This document shows, in pieces, positions 2,966 to 16,606 of a stretch of DNA of 24,000 nt. The notes under the pieces are model-generated. The model made no database searches. It saw only the letters and a list, made by a program, of their open reading frames with translations, and was not told where the DNA came from. Position numbers and translations under genes: made by a program. Position 1 is the first letter of the stretch. Each line of letters opens with the position of its first letter. This DNA is from Vibrio sp. Of14-4 (GTDB lineage Bacteria > Pseudomonadota > Gammaproteobacteria > Enterobacterales > Vibrionaceae), in assembly GCF_022347625.1 (NCBI RefSeq), contig NZ_JAKRGI010000002.1, positions 132,561 to 156,560 on the forward strand. The letters run 5' to 3'.

Positions 2966-5098
2966 ATGAACAAACCACCATCACCTCACTTGGTTGCAAT
3001 CGCTGTTTCAGCAGCAATCTCGCTTTATGGATGTGGCGGCAGTGATAGCTCAGAAAGTACTTCGCCTACCACGAGCTATGCTCACTACAATCAAAAAGCA
3101 TGCGCTGATACAAACTTTGATGGCCAATGCAGTCAATATGAGCAAAAATTATTACTGGCCAGTGGTTACCCTAAGATGCTCAATGTTGGTGGCGCTATTC
3201 TGACCGCTCCCGGCGAACTTGATATTATTTCTCCCTTTACAACCTTAATACACAGCGAAATGCTTTATAACCCCTTGGTTCAAGGTCAAGTCGTCAATGC
3301 CAAAGCCTACTTACAAGCCAAATTAGGCAATTATGTTGGTGTTAATTTCGACACGCTCGATATCAATTACGGGCCTAAAAATGAGAGCCAAGTCTTGACT
3401 GAATCGCTTATTCAAGCACAACAAAGCGGTCCAAGTGGCGCTTCTCCTTTGGTCAAAATCGCTCACGCCCTCGATATGATGATAAAGTACAAAACGCTGG
3501 ATCTGAGCTCAATAAACTTAGACAAAGAGAGTTCACAACAGCTGAACCTTGATGGAGCGGTTCTTATACATGGGTCTCAGGAGGAAAAGGGACTCAAGTC
3601 ACTTAAATCGATTGCACTAAACCCAGCCAACAATAAACTCCTCTATCTCGACGACTTAGATACGGTTAAAGAACTGAGTACTTCAGTCAAAAGAGCAGCT
3701 GGCTTAGCGACTTACCAGCAAGCGCCCTCAGAGGGAGCAATAGCCCCAAGTTCAATAACAAGAGCAAGTCTCAGAAATGATGACCATCACGAATCAGACC
3801 ATGATAAAGAACACGACGATTTTGGTGGTAACGCAAGTAACCTACCGGATTTTGAAAAGGATGCTTCTCGAGAGCTAAAGCAAGTATTGCCTGCATTAAA
3901 TGGCGTACAATCCTATAAGCTTTATAACCCCCAAAACCACGCTATCCAAGTCGATGCATGTGAAGCGAGTGGCGGCAATGGTATTTTACTAACCAGCCTG
4001 CAAGATAACACTGGCCACGACAGCTCTTCAGAGGCTCCTGACATAATCACAATTCAACCTTCTGCGGCTATTGATACTATCGGCGGGGCATCTGGCAGCG
4101 AGTTACCGACCTTGCCACCAGCTCCAGTGGTGATTGAGCCCTCTTCTGCCGCCTGTTACAACGATAACTTTGAATGGATGAAGCCCCTATACAGCCAGAG
4201 TAGTATTCTGGCCCGTTGGGATAATGGCTTAGATACAAAAAAGGACCAGCTCTGGCTTTTGGATGAAATAAGCCTAAATAAATTATCACTACTGGATCAA
4301 GTCTCTGAAAAAAAAATCCTTATATCTAAAGATGAGCAAGACATCCTGCTCATTGCGGATAGTGACAGCCAAACAATTGGCACATTAGAAGCTAAGTTGA
4401 TTCCACTGAACAATCGAAGTTTTGGCTCCCCATCAATGATCAAACTTCAAAAAGACGACAGTTACCCGATTATTACTACCGCCAGTTTCGCTGCCAACCA
4501 GCAGATTGTATTTGCTTTACAAGACGAAAATACAACAAAACACAAAATCATTTGGATAAATAAAAGCGCGCCGACCAAACCCTTATCTAGTATCCAAGGC
4601 CAAGGGCAAGGGCAAGGGCAAGGGCAAGGGGTTATAAAGTATTTAGAATCATCGCCCGATGGTAAGTTTACCGTTGCAGTTACGAAAAAAAATATCTACT
4701 TACTTGATAATCAAACCCAGCGGATTTCCAAAACAATCGACTTTGATGCAAGCAGCATGACAGACTTATTTGTCCAGAATGATAAGGCGATTGCAATTGG
4801 AGAAGGCAAAGTTGATTATTTCCAGTTTGCTAATATTTCTGGCCCTCCGCTGATCGTTGCTACTCACTTAATTACCAAACAATTAGTCAATCAATGGGGC
4901 AAAGCACAGCTAGGTCCAATTACTTTGTATGATATGTTAAACCAAACCCCTCAATACACTAACTTGGCAGCTCATAACATACTGACTCCATTTAAAAACA
5001 TTAACTTAGAATGGAATGTATTAGGTGGCCAGGTTAGAAGCGTGAACATTAGTGGCACCTACAGGGGAGAAGATATTGCTATCACCAAGCCTCTATAA
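2966..5098 (+). CDS. Lipoprotein of unknown function, with an Asp/His-rich acidic segment and a (QG)6 repeat
   Basis: Long ORF. The ATG at 2966 gives MNKPPSPHLVAIAVSAAISLYG|CGGSDSS, a lipobox (the track's TTG at 2957 is less likely). It contains DDHHESDHDKEHDD (3779-3820) and QGQGQGQGQGQG (4595-4630). The C-terminal part has short beta-strand-like repeats (possible beta-propeller, a guess). No recognisable family. The SD is weak. Confidence 0.7.
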   Translation: MNKPPSPHLVAIAVSAAISLYGCGGSDSSESTSPTTSYAHYNQKACADTNFDGQCSQYEQKLLLASGYPKMLNVGGAILTAPGELDIISPFTTLIHSEMLYNPLVQGQVVNAKAYLQAKLGNYVGVNFDTLDINYGPKNESQVLTESLIQAQQSGPSGASPLVKIAHALDMMIKYKTLDLSSINLDKESSQQLNLDGAVLIHGSQEEKGLKSLKSIALNPANNKLLYLDDLDTVKELSTSVKRAAGLATYQQAPSEGAIAPSSITRASLRNDDHHESDHDKEHDDFGGNASNLPDFEKDASRELKQVLPALNGVQSYKLYNPQNHAIQVDACEASGGNGILLTSLQDNTGHDSSSEAPDIITIQPSAAIDTIGGASGSELPTLPPAPVVIEPSSAACYNDNFEWMKPLYSQSSILARWDNGLDTKKDQLWLLDEISLNKLSLLDQVSEKKILISKDEQDILLIADSDSQTIGTLEAKLIPLNNRSFGSPSMIKLQKDDSYPIITTASFAANQQIVFALQDENTTKHKIIWINKSAPTKPLSSIQGQGQGQGQGQGVIKYLESSPDGKFTVAVTKKNIYLLDNQTQRISKTIDFDASSMTDLFVQNDKAIAIGEGKVDYFQFANISGPPLIVATHLITKQLVNQWGKAQLGPITLYDMLNQTPQYTNLAAHNILTPFKNINLEWNVLGGQVRSVNISGTYRGEDIAITKPL
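4595..4630 (+). repeat. In-frame hexanucleotide tandem repeat: CAAGGC followed by 5x CAAGGG, encoding (Gln-Gly)6
   Basis: Read directly: caaggc caaggg caaggg caaggg caaggg caaggg inside the 2966-5098 CDS. Confidence 0.95.
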
Positions 5099-9869: not shown

Positions 9870-10871
9870 CTACTCAATCGAGTTTTCGTCTTTAAGACTC
9901 CATTTGTGATAAATTTCTTTAATCTCACTTTCTAAGCCTAAAAAGGTATCCACCATATGTGGGTCAAAATGTGAGCCAGCGTTATTTTGTATTTCACTTA
10001 ACGCGTCTTCAATTGACCACGCCTCTTTATAAGGGCGTTCCATAGTCAAAGCATCAAATACATCACAGATAGCGACGATCCTAGCGCCTTGTGGTATTTC
10101 CTCCCCAGCTAAGCCTTCTGGGTATCCTGTTCCATCCCAGCGTTCATGATGAGATTTGGCTACCTCAGCACCCAACTGGAATACAGGGTTAGAAGACATA
10201 GATAATATTTCATGACCAATTTCAGAGTGCTTTTTCATCACTACCCATTCATCCTCAGCTAAAGGTCTTGGCGCTTTAAGTATCGCATCAGGTATGCCAA
10301 TTTTCCCCGTGTCATGCAAAGGGGCTGCAAGTTCTAATAAGTTATAATTTTCATAATCCCAACCCACAGCTTTGGCTAATAACTTACAGTACTCGGCCAT
10401 GCGCCAAATGTGACTACCTGTGTCAGTATCATTATAATGGCCAGCAACACCCAGCATTCGAATCGCCGATAGAGCCAAAGAATCAACTTCAGCTAAACGA
10501 GTTAGAGATAGGTGAGTGGCAACACGACGAAGAACAATAGCCGGTGAGAAAGGTTTGGTTATATAATCAACGGCGCCTAGATCAAAACCCTTGGATTGAT
10601 CATCTGTGTCATCTTTAGCTGAGATAAAAATAACCGGAATATGAGCCGTTTCTGGCTCACACTTAAGCCTTCGACAGACTTCAAATCCATCCATCTCTGG
10701 CATCATAATGTCGAGTAAAATAATATTAGGCTGAGGCGATGTGTTTGCGAGCTTCAGCGCTTTCTCACCACTTGTGGCTGCCCTTACTGAGTAATTGCCT
10801 TTCTCCAATACACTTTTCAGAATTCGGATATTGTCTGGAACATCGTCAACCACTAAGATTGTTTTATCCAT
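9870..10871 (-). CDS. Response regulator with HD-GYP c-di-GMP phosphodiesterase output domain (RpfG type)
   Basis: REC domain (ILVVDDVPDN..., LLDIMMPEMDGFEV, phospho-acceptor Asp present, ITKPF). HD-GYP domain with intact motifs (APLHDTGKIGIP, KKHSEIGHEIL, SHHERWDGTGYPEGL, ICDVFDALTMERPYK). The ATG at 10871 (MDKTILVVDD) with a GAGG-type SD is preferred to the track's TTG at 10889. The gene starts 21 nt after the kinase stop. Confidence 0.9.
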   Translation of the reverse strand: MDKTILVVDDVPDNIRILKSVLEKGNYSVRAATSGEKALKLANTSPQPNIILLDIMMPEMDGFEVCRRLKCEPETAHIPVIFISAKDDTDDQSKGFDLGAVDYITKPFSPAIVLRRVATHLSLTRLAEVDSLALSAIRMLGVAGHYNDTDTGSHIWRMAEYCKLLAKAVGWDYENYNLLELAAPLHDTGKIGIPDAILKAPRPLAEDEWVVMKKHSEIGHEILSMSSNPVFQLGAEVAKSHHERWDGTGYPEGLAGEEIPQGARIVAICDVFDALTMERPYKEAWSIEDALSEIQNNAGSHFDPHMVDTFLGLESEIKEIYHKWSLKDENSIE

Positions 10872-10892
10872 TCTAGCCTCTAACCTCAACTC

Positions 10893-13613
10893 TTATATGC
10901 TAGATAGTATTTTATCTAGACATTCTAGCGCTTCGTCACTGTCGTATATTTCAATTGCTTCATTCAAGCGCTCTATCTCACCTGCTGCAACTTGTCCTTG
11001 TAACATGGCAACTAAGCTTGCAATGCTTTCCTCTTCAAATTCGCCTAACTCTAGCTGTTCCCTGATTTCCTCGCTCAGAGCTTTCACTTGTTCAAGGTCA
11101 AATTCCTGAGACACAATGGGGGAAGCATCAGTTTGAGTGTCAATAAGCGCAATAGATTCGAGGACCTGCTGCAAGGCGGATGAAAGTTCATTCCATTCCT
11201 CTGGCAGAATGTCTTTAGCCTGCTGTTTAAACGCTTGCTCAAAGGTAAAAGCAACCTGTGATAGGCGGTGCGCCCCTAGCGATGCTGAGGCCCCTTTCAA
11301 GGTATGTGCAGTAATCTCACCCTGCGCATAATCTTTGTCTTGCCACGATGCTTTTAAATCAGAGAAAGTCGTTTGATTATTTTTCGAAAAGCTAGTGAGG
11401 AGTTTGGTATACAAAGCTCTATCCTCATTGACTCTAGATAGACCTTCTTCAGTATTGATACCGCACAGTTCTGGTAGTGCTGACTCTTTGTCAATCTCAT
11501 CACTCTGTTGAGTCGGTGAACATTCAAAATTCTCATCTTTAAAGCTGGGATCAATCCACTTGAGCAACTTACTATATAACTCACTGGTATCTATCGGTTT
11601 AGCGATATGATCATTCATGCCCGCTTCGGCACACCGTTCTCTATCCTGCTGCATCGCATTAGCTGTCATTGCAATAATGGGGATGTCTTGGTGAGTCGGT
11701 TGTTCTCTCAGCACACTTGCTGCTTCTAGACCATCCATCACCGGCATCTGTAAGTCCATTAGAATCAGCGCATACTCACCATCAAGAGCCTTGTCTACCC
11801 CTTCTTTACCGTTGTTCGCCACTTCCACATTCAGGCCAACACTTTCCAATAACTCTACAGCAATAATTTGGTTGACTTCATTGTCTTCAACCAAAAGTAC
11901 CGGTGCCCCACGAACCGACGCAAAGCTTTCGAATAAGAGTTCGGTTTCATTTTTTTGCCCTGCACTATCAACAACCACTGCTTTACCCATGACTTCCATG
12001 ACAGTGTCCAACAAAGCCGATGCGCTAACAGGCTTAACCAGAAAACCATCGATCTTAGCCTCTGCAGCCTGAAGAACCACTTCCTCTCTGCCGTATGCTG
12101 TCATTAAAATGATTTTTGGAGAACAGTCGAGCGTTTTAATGATTTCCGATGCCTTAATGCCGTTCATTTCAGGCATTTGCCAATCCATTAAAACAAGTTC
12201 ATAGGGTCGATCCTCCGCCATGGCTTTTTTAACTTTATCAATCGCATCAAAGCCATCTATCGCAGTGGATATATCAAGAGCATAGGAGTGGAGAAGTTCC
12301 TTGTTGATATCACGAGCACTCTTGTTATCGTCCACAATCAAAGCTTTCATTCCTTTGAGCTTTTTCCAGTTGTAAATACGCTCTTGCTGATTTTCTATCT
12401 CATTATCAAGCACTCCGAATTCAGCAGTAAAAATGAAGCTACTTCCTTGCTGATAAACACTCTCTACCCAGATATCACCATTCATCAAGTGAACCAGGTT
12501 TTGACAAATACTAAGCCCTAAGCCCGTTCCGCCATATTTTCGAGTGGTTGAGGTGTCTGCCTGACTAAATGCACTGAACAGCTTTTGTATTTGTTCGGGT
12601 TTCAAGCCAATGCCCGTATCTTTGACCTCAAACTTTAACTTCACTCTGTCATTTGATTGTTCACAGTGAGTGATCTTAACGATAATTTCGCCTTGTTCAG
12701 TGAACTTAATTGCGTTGTTGCATAGATTGGTGAGTATCTGGCCAAGGCGTAAAGGATCTCCAACAAGTGAGTTGGGCAGTTCAGGTGGGGTTGAGAAAAT
12801 CACCTCGATGCCTTTTTCCTGTGCTTTTAACGTAATGATGGTGCACAGGTCGTCAAAAACTTTATCAAGCTGGAACGGAATATTTTCCATTTCCATTTTA
12901 CCAGCCTCAATCTTTGAAATATCGAGAATATCGTTGATGATACCCAGTAGAGCGCGCCCCGCTGAGTTTATCTTACCAATATAGTCATACTGCTTTGCGG
13001 TTAATTGCGTTTTGAGAACCAGCTCACTCAAGCCAATAATGGCATTCATCGGGGTGCGTATCTCGTGACTCATATTGGCCAGAAAATCGCCTTTTGCCAC
13101 ATCGGCCTCTTTGGTTCTTTCCAGCGATATTTGTAGCTCACGCATCAACTCTTGTTGCGAAAGCTGATTGAGTTTATGGCGTTGAAACTCAGTATTCTCT
13201 TGTGGGTTAAAGGAAAGATAAGGAAAGCGCTTAAAGGCCATCACGGTGTGAGAATGATTACTCGCAGTCTCGATACTGAAAGAATCAAAGATGTAGTCAT
13301 AATTCATAGATGGAAGCGCCCCAATAGCGCTATGAAACTCGAGTTTTATCCCCCAATTATCAGTAATCCGTGAAAAAGAAAGTGACGCATTGAAGCTATC
13401 GCATGTCGATAGCATTTTGTGACAAACTTCAGAGACCGCTGTGGCCACACGAACGGCGTTGACTCTAGAAAAATGACAATCAAGAGCAAGCCTTTTGACT
13501 TTATTTCTGAAGTCAACAACCGATGGGCTGTCTTCTATGCTACAGTCGGCAAGCTTGATATTGTCTTCGTCAGACGCTTGCTCCATTTCTTTTAGGACCG
13601 TTTCGAGATTCAT
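10893..13613 (-). CDS. Cytoplasmic hybrid sensor histidine kinase: novel N-terminal domain, HisKA, HATPase_c, REC, REC, Hpt
   Basis: H-box FLANMSHEIRTPMNAIIG. N-box LTNLCNNAIKFT. G-boxes VKDTGIGL and GGTGLGLSI. Two receiver domains (LVLMDWQMPEMNG, LILMDLQMPVMDG, each with ...KP). C-terminal Hpt (ITAHTLKGASASLGA). No hydrophobic TM segments. The ATG at 13613 is preferred; the track's TTG at 13634 abuts the rsbX stop codon (13631-13633). Confidence 0.9.
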   Translation of the reverse strand: MNLETVLKEMEQASDEDNIKLADCSIEDSPSVVDFRNKVKRLALDCHFSRVNAVRVATAVSEVCHKMLSTCDSFNASLSFSRITDNWGIKLEFHSAIGALPSMNYDYIFDSFSIETASNHSHTVMAFKRFPYLSFNPQENTEFQRHKLNQLSQQELMRELQISLERTKEADVAKGDFLANMSHEIRTPMNAIIGLSELVLKTQLTAKQYDYIGKINSAGRALLGIINDILDISKIEAGKMEMENIPFQLDKVFDDLCTIITLKAQEKGIEVIFSTPPELPNSLVGDPLRLGQILTNLCNNAIKFTEQGEIIVKITHCEQSNDRVKLKFEVKDTGIGLKPEQIQKLFSAFSQADTSTTRKYGGTGLGLSICQNLVHLMNGDIWVESVYQQGSSFIFTAEFGVLDNEIENQQERIYNWKKLKGMKALIVDDNKSARDINKELLHSYALDISTAIDGFDAIDKVKKAMAEDRPYELVLMDWQMPEMNGIKASEIIKTLDCSPKIILMTAYGREEVVLQAAEAKIDGFLVKPVSASALLDTVMEVMGKAVVVDSAGQKNETELLFESFASVRGAPVLLVEDNEVNQIIAVELLESVGLNVEVANNGKEGVDKALDGEYALILMDLQMPVMDGLEAASVLREQPTHQDIPIIAMTANAMQQDRERCAEAGMNDHIAKPIDTSELYSKLLKWIDPSFKDENFECSPTQQSDEIDKESALPELCGINTEEGLSRVNEDRALYTKLLTSFSKNNQTTFSDLKASWQDKDYAQGEITAHTLKGASASLGAHRLSQVAFTFEQAFKQQAKDILPEEWNELSSALQQVLESIALIDTQTDASPIVSQEFDLEQVKALSEEIREQLELGEFEEESIASLVAMLQGQVAAGEIERLNEAIEIYDSDEALECLDKILSSI

Positions 13614-13630: not shown

Positions 13631-14209
13631 TCAATTAACTCGGATTACTAGACACGTGGCATCATCAGACGCTTTCGCGAACTTCCGAGTGATATTCTGG
13701 GCAATAGTTTCAGCATTATCAGTATAGATGTTTGGATAATCTTTTGGATCAAAATTACTCATAATTCCATCAGAATAAAGTATTAATATTTCTCCAGGCA
13801 CCATCTGCACCCTATTTTTTTTCGGCGTCCGAATCTGATAGCCGAGTACACCTTGTTGACAGATAAATCTTTGTACTTCTTTACCGACCTTACACATGAA
13901 GATGTTACCAATACCGACATACTCTAGGCACAGCGACTCCACATCCAGATTGGCAATAATGGCAACGCCGCCATTTGTGCTTCGTAAGTTGTTATGTAAC
14001 TGCTCCATTAATTCTGCAAGATCTGTCTGATAGAACTGTTTCAAAAAGCGACGAGTCGTACTAGCGATACTGTGCGCGCTTTTACCATGTCCAGCACCAT
14101 CAAATAAACTAATAAAATAATCACTGCCATTTTGCTGATAAAAAGCGTCGTCACCATTCACCTCTTCGAGCGGCTTTTCACCAATCGCGATCTCGATTCT
14201 TTCTGTCAT
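13631..14209 (-). CDS. rsbX: RsbX-like PP2C (SpoIIE-family) serine phosphatase
   Basis: ~192-196 aa, the same size class as B. subtilis RsbX. PP2C-type motifs GDDAF, LFDGAGHG, LYSDGI and DDATCLVIRV. The ATG at 14209 forms an ATGA overlap with the rsbT stop. An alternative ATG lies at 14221. Position directly after rsbT matches the canonical rsbR-S-T-X order. Confidence 0.8.
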   Translation of the reverse strand: MTERIEIAIGEKPLEEVNGDDAFYQQNGSDYFISLFDGAGHGKSAHSIASTTRRFLKQFYQTDLAELMEQLHNNLRSTNGGVAIIANLDVESLCLEYVGIGNIFMCKVGKEVQRFICQQGVLGYQIRTPKKNRVQMVPGEILILYSDGIMSNFDPKDYPNIYTDNAETIAQNITRKFAKASDDATCLVIRVN

Positions 14210-14610
14210 TGCTTTAGCCATTTCCTTACCGTGACAGCAGTGCCAACACCTAGTTCTGTATCTATATGAAACGAATCCATCAGTCGTTTAGTACCAGGTA
14301 AACCCACCCCCATGGTCCCACCTGTACTGTAGTTATCACTCAGAGCTTTTTCGAGGTCTCGTATACCTCCACCGTTGTCTTTAGCGATGATTTCGACCCC
14401 TATTTTTTCTCCTTCTTGGACAGATTTAAGGTACAAAAACCCCCGTCCTGCATGATTAAGGATGTTTCGGGTTAATTCACTGACCGCTATTGAAATCATA
14501 TATTGGTCCACAGTAGAAAAGCCGAGCTGCTGCGCAAAAAGTTTCGCATCTAAACTGGCATAACCGACATCTGAGTCAGTCACAATGTCTAGTTTGGCGT
14601 TTTCTTTCAC
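14206..14610 (-). CDS. rsbT: RsbT-like serine protein kinase / switch protein (GHKL HATPase_c_2 type)
   Basis: N-box AVSELTRNILNHA, G1 box AKDNGGGI, G2 GGTMGVGLPG. The GTG at 14610 (G-rich SD GGGGGG 4 nt upstream) gives 134 aa versus 133 aa for B. subtilis RsbT. The track's TTG at 14637 remains possible. Confidence 0.85.
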   Translation of the reverse strand: MKENAKLDIVTDSDVGYASLDAKLFAQQLGFSTVDQYMISIAVSELTRNILNHAGRGFLYLKSVQEGEKIGVEIIAKDNGGGIRDLEKALSDNYSTGGTMGVGLPGTKRLMDSFHIDTELGVGTAVTVRKWLKQ

Positions 14611-14664
14611 CCAGCCCCCCAAGAGTAGTAGGTTCAAGCACTTGGACTTTTTCCATCATCTTCA

Positions 14665-15036
14665 TTAATGAGAGCGCAAATATTCCAGTGCTTCTTCCAT
14701 ATTTCGTTTGGTCGTCAAACCTCCAATGTCCATATTGGAATCAATCATAGATGCTATGACCCCAGGGCTTAACCCCGTTATGGCAGCACGAGAGCCCATA
14801 ACTTTAACCATATTGACTAGCTTAATAAATACATTCCACAATGAACTGTCGACAATATCAACACCCGAAAAGTCTATGACAACACCTTTAACGTGTCGTG
14901 CTCCTAGCTTGTCCAACAGCACCTCTTGTACTCGCTTTGCATCATCAATCGACAGCTCTTCTTGTATTGGTACAATCAAGCAGCGACTCATATCATGAAC
15001 CACCACTTTAATCATATCTGCTGGAGTATTACTCAT
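14665..15036 (-). CDS. rsbS: RsbS-like single-domain STAS protein (stressosome scaffold / RsbT antagonist)
   Basis: ~123 aa STAS domain. It has the conserved phosphorylatable-serine context VIDFSGVDIVDSS (compare B. subtilis RsbS Ser59 in ...G...VDS). The ATG at 15036 overlaps the rsbR stop by 8 nt (ATGAGTAA). The track's start at 15054 adds 6 codons. Confidence 0.85.
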   Translation of the reverse strand: MSNTPADMIKVVVHDMSRCLIVPIQEELSIDDAKRVQEVLLDKLGARHVKGVVIDFSGVDIVDSSLWNVFIKLVNMVKVMGSRAAITGLSPGVIASMIDSNMDIGGLTTKRNMEEALEYLRSH

Positions 15037-16606
15037 GCCATTTGTCCTGATCACCTTGGCTTTCGCTTAGTGTGTACCCAGCGATTTTAAAGGAATTATT
15101 CACACCTTCTTTGAGCGTGGACTGAGTCACTATATCGTTGAGTTCGATACCAAGATTGACGATAGCTTGAGCAACTACTGGAGAGATGCCTGTCACAATA
15201 CATACACACCCCATCAGCCTTGTAGCCTTAGCAACCTTCAAAAGATGGTTAGCAACAGCGCTGTCTACAGTCGGAACTCCCTGAATATCAATAACAATCA
15301 CGCGCGCTTCATAATCGATCACTTTTTGCAGCACAGCTTCCATGATCATCTGGATTCGATTTGAATCAATCAGGCCAATCACTGGTAACATAAGTACTTT
15401 ATCCCAAAGCTGCATCACGGGCGTCGACATTTCCATAATCATCGAGGCCTGTTTTGCTCGTTCCTCAGACATTCTCTTACGATCAGTGATATCCGAGGCG
15501 ACCTTAAGCACTTTGTATGGTTCACCTTTGAGGTCTAAGACTGGGTTATAAGTGGCTTGGATATAAACTTCTCGACCATTTTTGGCAATGCGCTTAAATT
15601 CTCCCGAATTAAACTGTCCAGCACCGAGCTCACGCCAAAATTCTCTATACTGCTCAGTTTCACTGTATTCTTTGTCACAGAACAACCTATGGTGCTTACC
15701 TTGAACCTCTGCCAAGCTATAGCCCATAAGATCCAAAAAGTTCTTGTTAGCGGTAATGACTGTTCCATCAAGATTAAACTCTATTGTTCCCAATGATTTA
15801 TCAATCGCATCGGCTTTAGCCTGAGCTTCATTACTTATAGTTTTGAACTCGGTAATATCTGATGCAACTTTTAGCACCTTGACCAGTTTACCTTGTTCAT
15901 TGAACACAGGATTATAGGTCGCTTGTATAAAAACAGTTTGTCCATCCTTAGTCACGCGAACAAATTCACCCGAACTGTATTCCCCTTTACCCAAATTATC
16001 CCAAAATTGGCTATATGCCACGCTTTGGCGGTATTCATCTTCGCAAAATATTCTATGGTGCTTACCTTTAATTTCGCTGAGGGTGTAATGCATGAGGTCA
16101 AGAAAATTCTGATTAGCTGTAATGATGGTGCCATCTAGCTCGAATTCTATTGTCGCTAGTGATCGGTCAATCGCTTGTATATGTGCTTTTGCCTTGATGC
16201 TGGCAAGCTTGCTATCGGTAATATCATTGGCAACTTTAACAACTCGTATAGCCTTACCATTACTATCAAATACCGGGTTATACGTTGCCTGAAGGTAGAT
16301 TTCTTTCCCTCCTTTCGCAACACGTTTATATTCACCAGAATCGTACTCACCCTTGCCTAACTTAGCCCAAAAATCCTTATAAGCTTTGCTTCTAGCGTGT
16401 GCAGGCGTGACAAACATTCGATGATGCTTGCCTTTAATTTCATCCAGAGAATACCCAACAACATCAAGAAAATTTTGATTCGCATTATAAATAGTGCCAT
16501 CAAGCTCGAACTCTATAACACCTTGAGAACGGTTAATCGCGTTGTACACACTTTCATATAACTCTGCTTCTGTATCAAAACCTTTGTTTGTTTTTTTCAT
16601 TGCCAC
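15029..16606 (-). CDS. rsbR: RsbR-like stressosome sensor: three tandem PAS domains plus C-terminal STAS domain
   Basis: 525 aa. Three 122-aa PAS repeats (aa 23-133, 145-255, 267-377) each contain IEF-x-LDGT-x-x-x-AN-x-NFL...GKHHR-x-F...IQATYNPV...KV-x-DIT. The C-terminal STAS (aa ~393-505), VIVIDIQGVPTVDSAVANHLLKVAKATRLMGCVCIVTGISPVVAQAIVNLGIEL, is closely colinear with the RsbRA C-terminus as I recall it. AAGGAG SD 6 nt upstream. Confidence 0.85.
   Translation of the reverse strand: MAMKKTNKGFDTEAELYESVYNAINRSQGVIEFELDGTIYNANQNFLDVVGYSLDEIKGKHHRMFVTPAHARSKAYKDFWAKLGKGEYDSGEYKRVAKGGKEIYLQATYNPVFDSNGKAIRVVKVANDITDSKLASIKAKAHIQAIDRSLATIEFELDGTIITANQNFLDLMHYTLSEIKGKHHRIFCEDEYRQSVAYSQFWDNLGKGEYSSGEFVRVTKDGQTVFIQATYNPVFNEQGKLVKVLKVASDITEFKTISNEAQAKADAIDKSLGTIEFNLDGTVITANKNFLDLMGYSLAEVQGKHHRLFCDKEYSETEQYREFWRELGAGQFNSGEFKRIAKNGREVYIQATYNPVLDLKGEPYKVLKVASDITDRKRMSEERAKQASMIMEMSTPVMQLWDKVLMLPVIGLIDSNRIQMIMEAVLQKVIDYEARVIVIDIQGVPTVDSAVANHLLKVAKATRLMGCVCIVTGISPVVAQAIVNLGIELNDIVTQSTLKEGVNNSFKIAGYTLSESQGDQDKWHE
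15476..16540 (-). repeat. Three tandem 366-bp coding repeats (PAS1-PAS3) inside rsbR
   Basis: The period is exactly 122 codons (AINRS at aa 23, AIDRS at aa 145, AIDKS at aa 267). By my hand alignment PAS2 and PAS3 are identical at 69 of 111 residues. Synonymous sites differ extensively, for example attcaggcaacgtataacccggta / atacaagcgacctataatcctgtg / atccaagccacttataacccagtc, so the duplication is old. Confidence 0.85.

Follow-up and report, generated by a model that had tools for sequence, protein, structure and literature searches.

How stressosomes outside the Bacillus/Listeria group signal to their two-component and second-messenger targets is an acknowledged gap, and the question takes concrete form in an operon of Vibrio sp. 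Of14-4, in which the stressosome genes rsbR, rsbS, rsbT and rsbX run directly into a gene for a hybrid histidine kinase. The operon lies in a stretch of 24,000 nucleotides (NCBI RefSeq assembly GCF_022347625.1, contig NZ_JAKRGI010000002.1, positions 132,561 to 156,560), called the window here and used for all coordinates below. An earlier reading of this DNA, made from its letters and their translations (the sequence-only reading), had proposed that the N-terminus of the kinase is a degenerate copy of the neighbouring RsbT, through which the kinase may receive the stressosome signal. The present analysis supports the view that residues 18-131 of the kinase, the N-domain, form a catalytically dead GHKL domain that lacks the ATP lid and descends from an RsbT-type partner-switching kinase. 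This N-domain is probably a stressosome-coupling input module, and probably the missing link to the outputs of Gram-negative-type stressosomes.

Relationship of the N-domain to RsbT

The resemblance was originally drawn from a gap-free hand alignment of kinase residues 45-100 with RsbT residues 37-92. Its register proved correct, but the identity amounts to 11/56 (19.6%) rather than the approximately 25% that had been given. The substitutions read from it were right: RsbT N58 corresponds to K66 of the kinase, N61-H62 to S69-T70, and D87-N-G-G-G to S95-A-I-G-A. The best ungapped 56-mer lies on the same diagonal, with a BLOSUM62 score of 28 that was equalled by 7 of 1000 shuffles. BLASTP of the N-terminus against RsbT returned nothing significant, the sole match being IFDSFSIET with LMDSFHIDT (E 0.44); this pair corresponds to the strand following the ATP lid, and was thus the first hint that the similarity resumes past a deletion. 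Given the shuffled scores and the non-significant BLASTP result, the pairwise evidence alone is only suggestive.

Comparison of whole families was decisive for the homology. When 56 domain homologues were aligned by hhalign as a profile with 38 RsbT homologues, a probability of 94.7% was obtained (E 6.2e-8, 110 columns), whereas reversed and ten column-shuffled controls scored 8-14.5, with probabilities of at most 0.5%; with the linker removed, the match to RsbT still stood at 95.0%. The alignment spans kinase residues 22-131 and RsbT residues 14-142, and so comprises the register of the hand alignment plus the strands that follow the lid. We also considered, and rejected, an origin of the similarity in generic GHKL motifs: the N-domain profile reached 1.6% against canonical histidine kinase catalytic domains, while the RsbT profile reached 97.7% against the same domains. 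Since the N-domain has no similarity to histidine kinase catalytic domains, its GHKL link runs specifically via RsbT-type proteins and rests on features other than the ATP motifs.

A search of 400 gammaproteobacterial genomes with a hidden Markov model (HMM) of the domain pointed in the same direction. Ten matches were found, namely two full domains (in this genome and in genome G258) and eight small open reading frames (ORFs) of 136-157 residues, with E values from 2e-11 to 3e-6 and intact ELxRN, DxGPGI and GxGxGLPG motifs. Each of the eight ORFs follows genes for RsbR and RsbS and precedes a PP2C gene, a position that identifies them as genuine RsbT orthologues.

Structure prediction likewise gave a GHKL-like fold, that of RsbW and SpoIIAB. 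Residues 1-171 were modelled as a monomer with AlphaFold2 (AF2) from a 68-sequence alignment and without templates, with a predicted local distance difference test score (pLDDT) of 82.4 and a predicted template modelling score of 0.74. The predicted elements are β1 (18-26), α1 (29-45), α2 (50-68), β2 (74-83), β3 (86-95), a loop (96-110), β4 (111-116), β5 (122-129) and two helices (137-149 and 153-170). Their order, β1-α1-α2-β2-β3-β4-β5, is that of a Bergerat-type α/β sandwich and was the same in two AF2 models; α2 is a degenerate N-box helix, T58-x-x-S61-E62-x-x-H65-K66, and the loop stands in for G1, the ATP lid and G2. In a Foldseek search of the PDB, the top 17 matches were all RsbW, SpoIIAB or UsfX, an anti-σF factor of mycobacteria (E 1.3e-4 to 1.4e-2, probability 1.00, target-normalised TM-score 0.56-0.72), after which the scores dropped sharply (rank 18: E 0.19, probability 0.2). 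These proteins (6m36/6m37, 1tid/1th8/1til/1l0o/1thn and 8ih8/8jzt) are the nearest solved structures to the model and bind STAS partners on the face of the nucleotide pocket. They differ from the N-domain in that they are separate, active dimers which bind ATP as well as sigma factors, and they were missed by the N-domain's sequence profile, which met no relevant chain among PDB sequences. In the PDB, the RsbT profile itself met SpoIIAB chains alone and none of RsbT, so that RsbW, SpoIIAB and UsfX are also the closest relatives of RsbT with a solved structure.

Loss of the ATP-binding machinery is a property of the whole domain family. The N-box Asn, present in all 38 RsbT homologues, is found in none of the 56 domain homologues (it is Lys66 in this kinase), and the G1 Asp and G1 Gly, each 38/38 in the RsbT family, remain in 3/56 and 6/56, respectively. 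The ATP lid together with the G2 box (G-x-G-x-G-L-x-G), present in the RsbT family, has been removed by a 19-column deletion common to the entire domain family, and AF2 places the loop 96-110, with no lid helix, at the lid position. Other residues of the N-box helix were kept: Thr in 47/56, Ser in 55/56, Glu in 50/56 (with Asp in five more) and the next Arg in 38/56. The Gly preceding β3 (45/56) and the β5 Lys (40/56) are also retained, and the M-D of RsbT before β4 is replaced by F-D (Phe 55/56, Asp 53/56). On the basis of the missing N-box Asn, G1 and G2 and the 19-residue lid deletion, neither ATP binding nor kinase activity is expected, and the N-domain is predicted to be without ATP-dependent Ser/Thr kinase activity toward a STAS partner.

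Thus, RsbT is the closest relative of the N-domain by profile, shares its order of secondary-structure elements, always occurs in the same operon, and has in common with it T-x-x-S-E-x-x-R in α2, the Gly before β3, [M/F]-D before β4 and the β5 Lys. In contrast to RsbT, the N-domain forms part of an effector and does not stand alone, lacks the N-box Asn, G1, G2 and lid, is negative for PF13581, and has its own invariant R36-x-K38 in α1, its own F109-D110 and a conserved C-terminal linker. Four independent tests, namely profile alignment, HMM matches, AF2 fold and family-wide motif loss, uphold the earlier proposal of a degenerate, pseudo-kinase version of an RsbT-type GHKL domain. As regards a copy of the neighbouring RsbT, descent from the RsbT type holds, but a recent duplication of the adjacent gene does not, because the family is ancient and widespread.

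The domain is also longer than first thought. The interval 13311-13613 of the sequence-only reading covers residues 1-101, whereas the core, as defined by hhalign, AF2, Foldseek and column statistics, comprises residues 18-131 (13221..13562, minus strand) and includes the segment after the lid that the hand alignment did not contain. Residues 1-17 (13563..13613, minus strand) form an N-terminal extension predicted as a helix with low confidence (pLDDT 54-65), and homologues align from query residue 19. The core is followed by a family-conserved linker, residues 132-172 (13098..13220, minus strand), recognised by alignment conservation and in a second AF2 model, which covers residues 1-270. Its consensus is P-x-F-x-P-T-x-E-F-I...L-S-R-x-E-L, with a short helix at 137-148 and then the onset of a long helix, 153-200, into the dimerisation and histidine phosphotransfer (DHp) domain; the second model shows this helix unbroken from the LSxxEL linker through His183.

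Distribution, genomic setting and outputs of the N-domain

In a full phmmer scan of 1.8 billion representative proteins with the N-domain, 66 relatives passed a threshold of E <= 1e-3, and 23 of these also passed E <= 1e-10. The matched region starts at residue 2 in almost all of these proteins, so the 17-residue head of the present kinase is an extension specific to the Vibrio clade. The family consensus is MIELGxIxIxDxxSIVEARNKIRxLAxDLxF....ATRLATxxSExxR...GLxLxF...FD....G...I.AFK..PDPxFxP..EFI...R..L..LSRxEL, and R36, K38, R55, F93 and F135, together with the F109-D110 motif, are near-invariant residues of the family's own. Lineages that carry the domain include Vibrio, Luminiphilus, Desulfobacterales, Nitrospina, Dehalococcoidia, Atribacteria, WOR-3 and a flavobacterial metagenome-assembled genome; a search of this genome for a second copy found none.

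The Pfam and NCBIfam libraries do not contain this module. Searches of Pfam, NCBIfam and PDB sequences (the last with phmmer) found no match to kinase residues 1-181, the 56 aligned family members matched no relevant Pfam family, including PF08673 (RsbU_N), with the PF13581 model silent, and a PF13581 scan of the window's own genome missed the N-domain. PF13581 entries do occur in the domain lists of homologues; they were rejected as N-domain matches after the match in the one protein checked (P0200) was found to be its C-terminal catalytic domain. A literature search for an RsbT-like, GHKL or pseudokinase N-terminal domain in connection with the stressosome found no prior description. The N-domain is therefore a new module, a lid-less RsbT-derived pseudo-kinase absent from the Pfam and NCBIfam libraries, and is new also in its breadth; the stressosome system and the idea of an N-terminal module that responds to RsbT are already known.

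Genomic context links the domain to the stressosome irrespective of its output. Eight members were looked up, chosen for diversity and long contigs from metagenomes and genomes. All eight directly follow a series of STAS, STAS, HATPase_c_2 and SpoIIE genes, usually overlapping the rsbX stop codon, and their architectures comprise GGDEF-EAL, plain histidine kinase, histidine kinase-REC, PAS-histidine kinase-REC, PAS-GAF-GGDEF-HD-GYP and PAS-HD-GYP. Other members have PP2C outputs, annotated 'RsbU', or class III cyclase outputs. When these eight loci are taken together with that of G258 and those of seven Vibrio genomes (this one included), the N-domain gene stands directly after rsbRSTX in the same orientation in 16/16 cases, and an intact rsbT was present at every locus examined. 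This constancy of position lends strong support to the earlier suggestion that the kinase may be a receiver of the stressosome signal.

Since it stands N-terminal to a helical linker and to many types of output, the N-domain holds the architectural position of RsbU_N (PF08673), which is known from RsbU, Moorella MtG and some proteobacterial kinases. Both are N-terminal modules joined by a helical or coiled-coil linker to effectors encoded beside stressosome genes, and both serve the same range of outputs, PP2C, histidine kinase and GGDEF (PMC12143880; PMC9237108). However, RsbU_N is a four-helix bundle that dimerises and binds RsbT, and the N-domain a predicted α/β sandwich; its identity as an RsbU_N was rejected on the basis of this fold and of the lack of a PF08673 match. 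RsbT is known to control RsbU_N-type proteins by ordering the coiled-coil linker, and the same has been proposed for RsbU_N-histidine kinase and RsbU_N-GGDEF proteins (PMC12143880). Heinz et al. (2022) reported that most downstream proteins of stressosome operons have no RsbU_N, the V. vulnificus kinase included, and stated that a known receiver domain is absent (PMC9237108).

Most other rsbRSTX loci of Vibrio have a homologue of the domain that has degenerated further. RsbT homologues were found in 42/285 Vibrio genomes, and the N-domain at E <= 1e-5 in seven. The remaining Vibrio rsbRSTX loci examined (L046-L069) encode, from an ORF start at about 2450-2480 in each locus, a protein with an N-terminus of approximately 115 residues, an 'EKSRDELM' linker and a PAS domain. 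By hhalign, 22 such N-termini matched the domain family at 97.4% (E 1.5e-11) but RsbT at 1.5% only. A similarity due to the shared linker alone was rejected, because the comparison without linker still gave 93.4%. The present family thus stands as an intermediate between RsbT and the more degenerate Vibrio type, in which direct similarity to RsbT has gone. The downstream kinase of V. vulnificus, VvD1 (VV2_0077), is reported to contain a PAS domain and no RsbU_N (PMC9237108), and shares with the present kinase its operon position and its lack of RsbU_N; judging from the fit to this description, the degenerate subtype is probably the VvD1 type.

Three variations on the arrangement were noted. 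A metagenomic protein of 552 residues (P0011) has two tandem N-domains (1-130 and 131-269) ahead of HisKA-HATPase_c. At locus L031, RsbT and RsbX are fused in one protein of 330 residues (4012-5004; HATPase_c_2 plus SpoIIE), directly upstream of a gene for an N-domain-histidine kinase-REC protein. Finally, eight loci (L009-L016, from G316, G340, G378, G247, G113, G037, G143 and G310) have another layout, with a second GHKL domain after rsbR-rsbS-rsbT that is free-standing or fused to the N-terminus of a PP2C phosphatase; in L009 this second domain is intact by sequence, with ELGTN, DQGGG and GTGLG motifs. This layout is another way to place an RsbT-like domain before an output.

Possible partners of the N-domain

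The account that we favour as a whole, with slightly better than even confidence, is that a dead RsbT-type domain couples its effector to the stressosome and does so preferably as a reader of STAS domains. We infer that the coupling uses a protein-binding surface inherited from RsbT. The version in which this surface docks on STAS domains, and so reads the phosphorylation state of RsbS and RsbR, is our preference among possible partners, but a tentative one in which our confidence stays below even. According to this version, the two N-domains of a dimeric kinase would dock, as RsbT does, on the unphosphorylated STAS domains of RsbS and RsbR. The docking face would be the retained N-box S61-E62, with the Glu directed toward the phosphorylatable Ser/Thr of the STAS domain, and RsbT as writer and RsbX as eraser would set the phosphorylation state. 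Docking or release may then alter the packing of the linker helices, and this would switch autophosphorylation of His183 and relay to the REC-HD-GYP regulator encoded downstream.

Several observations argue for a STAS partner. The catalytic-base Glu and its neighbours have been kept, even though ATP is not expected to bind. Two N-domains tethered in one dimer would be expected to form a pair, and the STAS-binding face would then be left free; the tandem N-domains of P0011 are consistent with such self-pairing. The RsbT-RsbX fusion of L031 suits a writer/eraser pair better than it suits a diffusible messenger. In addition, no RsbT-D1 interaction was detected in V. vulnificus (PMC9237108), a weak negative.

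Other points weigh against this account, in which the identity of the partner is conjecture. In every characterised pathway (B. subtilis RsbU and Moorella MtG), released RsbT is the messenger and binds the N-terminal domain of the effector (PMC12143880), so that RsbT is favoured as the partner by analogy. The two-hybrid negative for RsbT-D1 is weak, the same study having also failed to detect the RsbT-RsbS and RsbT-RsbR pairs (PMC9237108). An effector seated on RsbS sites would compete with RsbT for RsbT's own substrate, and the retained S-E could be structural. On the structural side, the Foldseek TM-scores are moderate with root-mean-square deviations of 3.4-4.9 Å, the AF2 models are monomeric and hence uninformative on geometry between domains, and the Pfam HATPase_c_2 model (PF13581) fails to detect the N-domain.

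The strongest alternative, which we regard as rather unlikely but still a serious competitor, is that released RsbT itself is the partner, either in a GHKL-GHKL heterodimer like the homodimers of RsbW and SpoIIAB or through another surface, and that its binding rigidifies the coiled-coil linker as it does with RsbU_N in Bacillus. On this alternative, RsbT may not need its kinase activity for output, just as it does not in B. subtilis. After duplication, an enzyme commonly ends up in a heterodimer with a dead paralogue, and intact rsbT accompanies the domain at all examined loci. The N-domain moreover occupies the position of RsbU_N ahead of a helical linker and effector, and ordering of the linker by RsbT is established for RsbU (PMC12143880). 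On the other hand, the weak RsbT-D1 negative from V. vulnificus (PMC9237108) tells against such binding; self-pairing of tethered N-domains, if it occurs as expected, would occupy the canonical dimer face; and the L031 fusion is awkward for a messenger that has to diffuse freely.

It is improbable that the N-domain is a mere dimerisation or scaffold cap, or a transient substrate of RsbT as suggested by Heinz et al., with no stable binding to the stressosome. A near-invariant Ser61 and other Ser/Thr residues are present, and RsbW and SpoIIAB are homodimers. However, Ser61 is equally invariant in RsbT (38/38), which makes a structural role in the N-box likelier for it than phosphorylation. A plain dimeriser would need no strict linkage to rsbRSTX across phyla and five output types, and the family's invariant motifs, R36-x-K38 and F109-D110, point to a specific interface. 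A convergent or artefactual resemblance to RsbT, with the N-domain an unrelated α/β input domain, is very improbable: pairwise BLASTP is non-significant, searches of Pfam, NCBIfam and PDB sequences yielded nothing and identity is only approximately 20%, but against this stand a profile-profile match with clean controls, HMM-to-sequence matches that other than the full domains are exclusively RsbT orthologues, a template-free AF2 model for which Foldseek breaks off after 17 anti-sigma-kinase matches, and the genomic linkage to rsbT.

Docking of the N-domain on STAS domains, if it occurs, would have a wider consequence. Where RsbU_N is absent, RsbT may not be the messenger at all; instead, the dead RsbT copy of each effector would dock on unphosphorylated STAS domains of RsbS and RsbR, with RsbT and RsbX acting only as writer and eraser. 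We advance this generalisation as possible but doubtful. Stressosome systems without RsbU_N are the majority of those surveyed (PMC9237108). If true, the stressosome would store kinases, phosphatases and cyclic-nucleotide enzymes on a platform gated by phosphorylation. The N-domain is, in any case, a concrete, conserved and structurally defined candidate receiver on kinases, PP2C phosphatases, adenylate/guanylate cyclases and cyclic di-GMP enzymes, and a bacterial GHKL pseudo-enzyme recruited as a signalling input. Now that domain boundaries and invariant residues are defined and two partner models stand in sharp contrast, the question is directly testable.

The operon and the architecture of the kinase

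Six co-directional genes on the minus strand make up the operon, in the order rsbR, rsbS, rsbT, rsbX, hybrid histidine kinase and REC-HD-GYP regulator. RsbS (14665..15054, minus strand) consists of a single STAS domain (PF01740, E 8.7e-12). RsbT (14206..14637, minus strand) is an intact GHKL Ser/Thr kinase with a match to PF13581, and its homologues carry the name RsbT. The N-box E54/N58, the G1 D87-N-G-G-G and the G2 G-V-G-L-P-G are all present, and it is the active relative of the N-domain. RsbX (13631..14221, minus strand; PF07228, E 4.9e-14), a PP2C/SpoIIE-type phosphatase, is encoded directly upstream of the kinase. The operon ends with the gene for the REC-HD-GYP response regulator (9870..10889, minus strand; PF00072 and PF13487), the probable phosphorelay target of the hybrid kinase.

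The kinase gene (10893..13613, minus strand) encodes 906 residues from an ATG, arranged as pseudo-GHKL, linker, HisKA, HATPase_c, REC, REC and Hpt. The HisKA/DHp domain occupies residues 173-238 (12900..13097, minus strand; PF00512, E 4.5e-20), with the His183 codon at 13065-13067, and a genuine catalytic HATPase_c follows at residues 285-397 (12423..12761, minus strand; PF02518, E 5.7e-30). PF00072 is matched twice (2.6e-49) and Hpt as PF01627 (5.5e-12). Two simple features noted earlier were confirmed: about 180 residues precede the H-box, whose phospho-acceptor is His183, and the protein has no transmembrane segment, as Kyte-Doolittle means over 19 residues do not exceed 0.85 within its first 190. 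The closest relatives of the kinase are annotated in Vibrio tetraodonis, where identity reaches 93% over the first 175 residues, and in V. pectenicida, where it is 75%.

RsbR (15029..16606, minus strand) has by Pfam three PAS domains and a C-terminal STAS domain. The three tandem PAS domains take the sensor position, with no haem-globin; a haem-globin sensor has been described for the RsbR proteins of V. vulnificus and V. brasiliensis. At other loci, the RsbR sensor is a globin (L032), RsbRD_N (L006) or nothing but a bare STAS domain. These differences between loci indicate that the RsbR sensor is freely exchanged, while the pseudo-kinase head of the output protein is retained.

Two gene starts deserve mention. 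The listed RsbT ORF (14206-14637; 143 residues, TTG start) is some 8-10 N-terminal residues longer than its homologues (133-136 residues, about 90% coverage), and translation probably begins at an internal codon. In the long ORF of the kinase, the first codon is a TTG at 13634 which shares bases with the stop codon of rsbX (AATTGA), and the annotated start of homologues corresponds to the ATG at 13613, 18 nucleotides downstream of that TTG; in most other members of the N-domain family, start and rsbX stop share 4 nucleotides.

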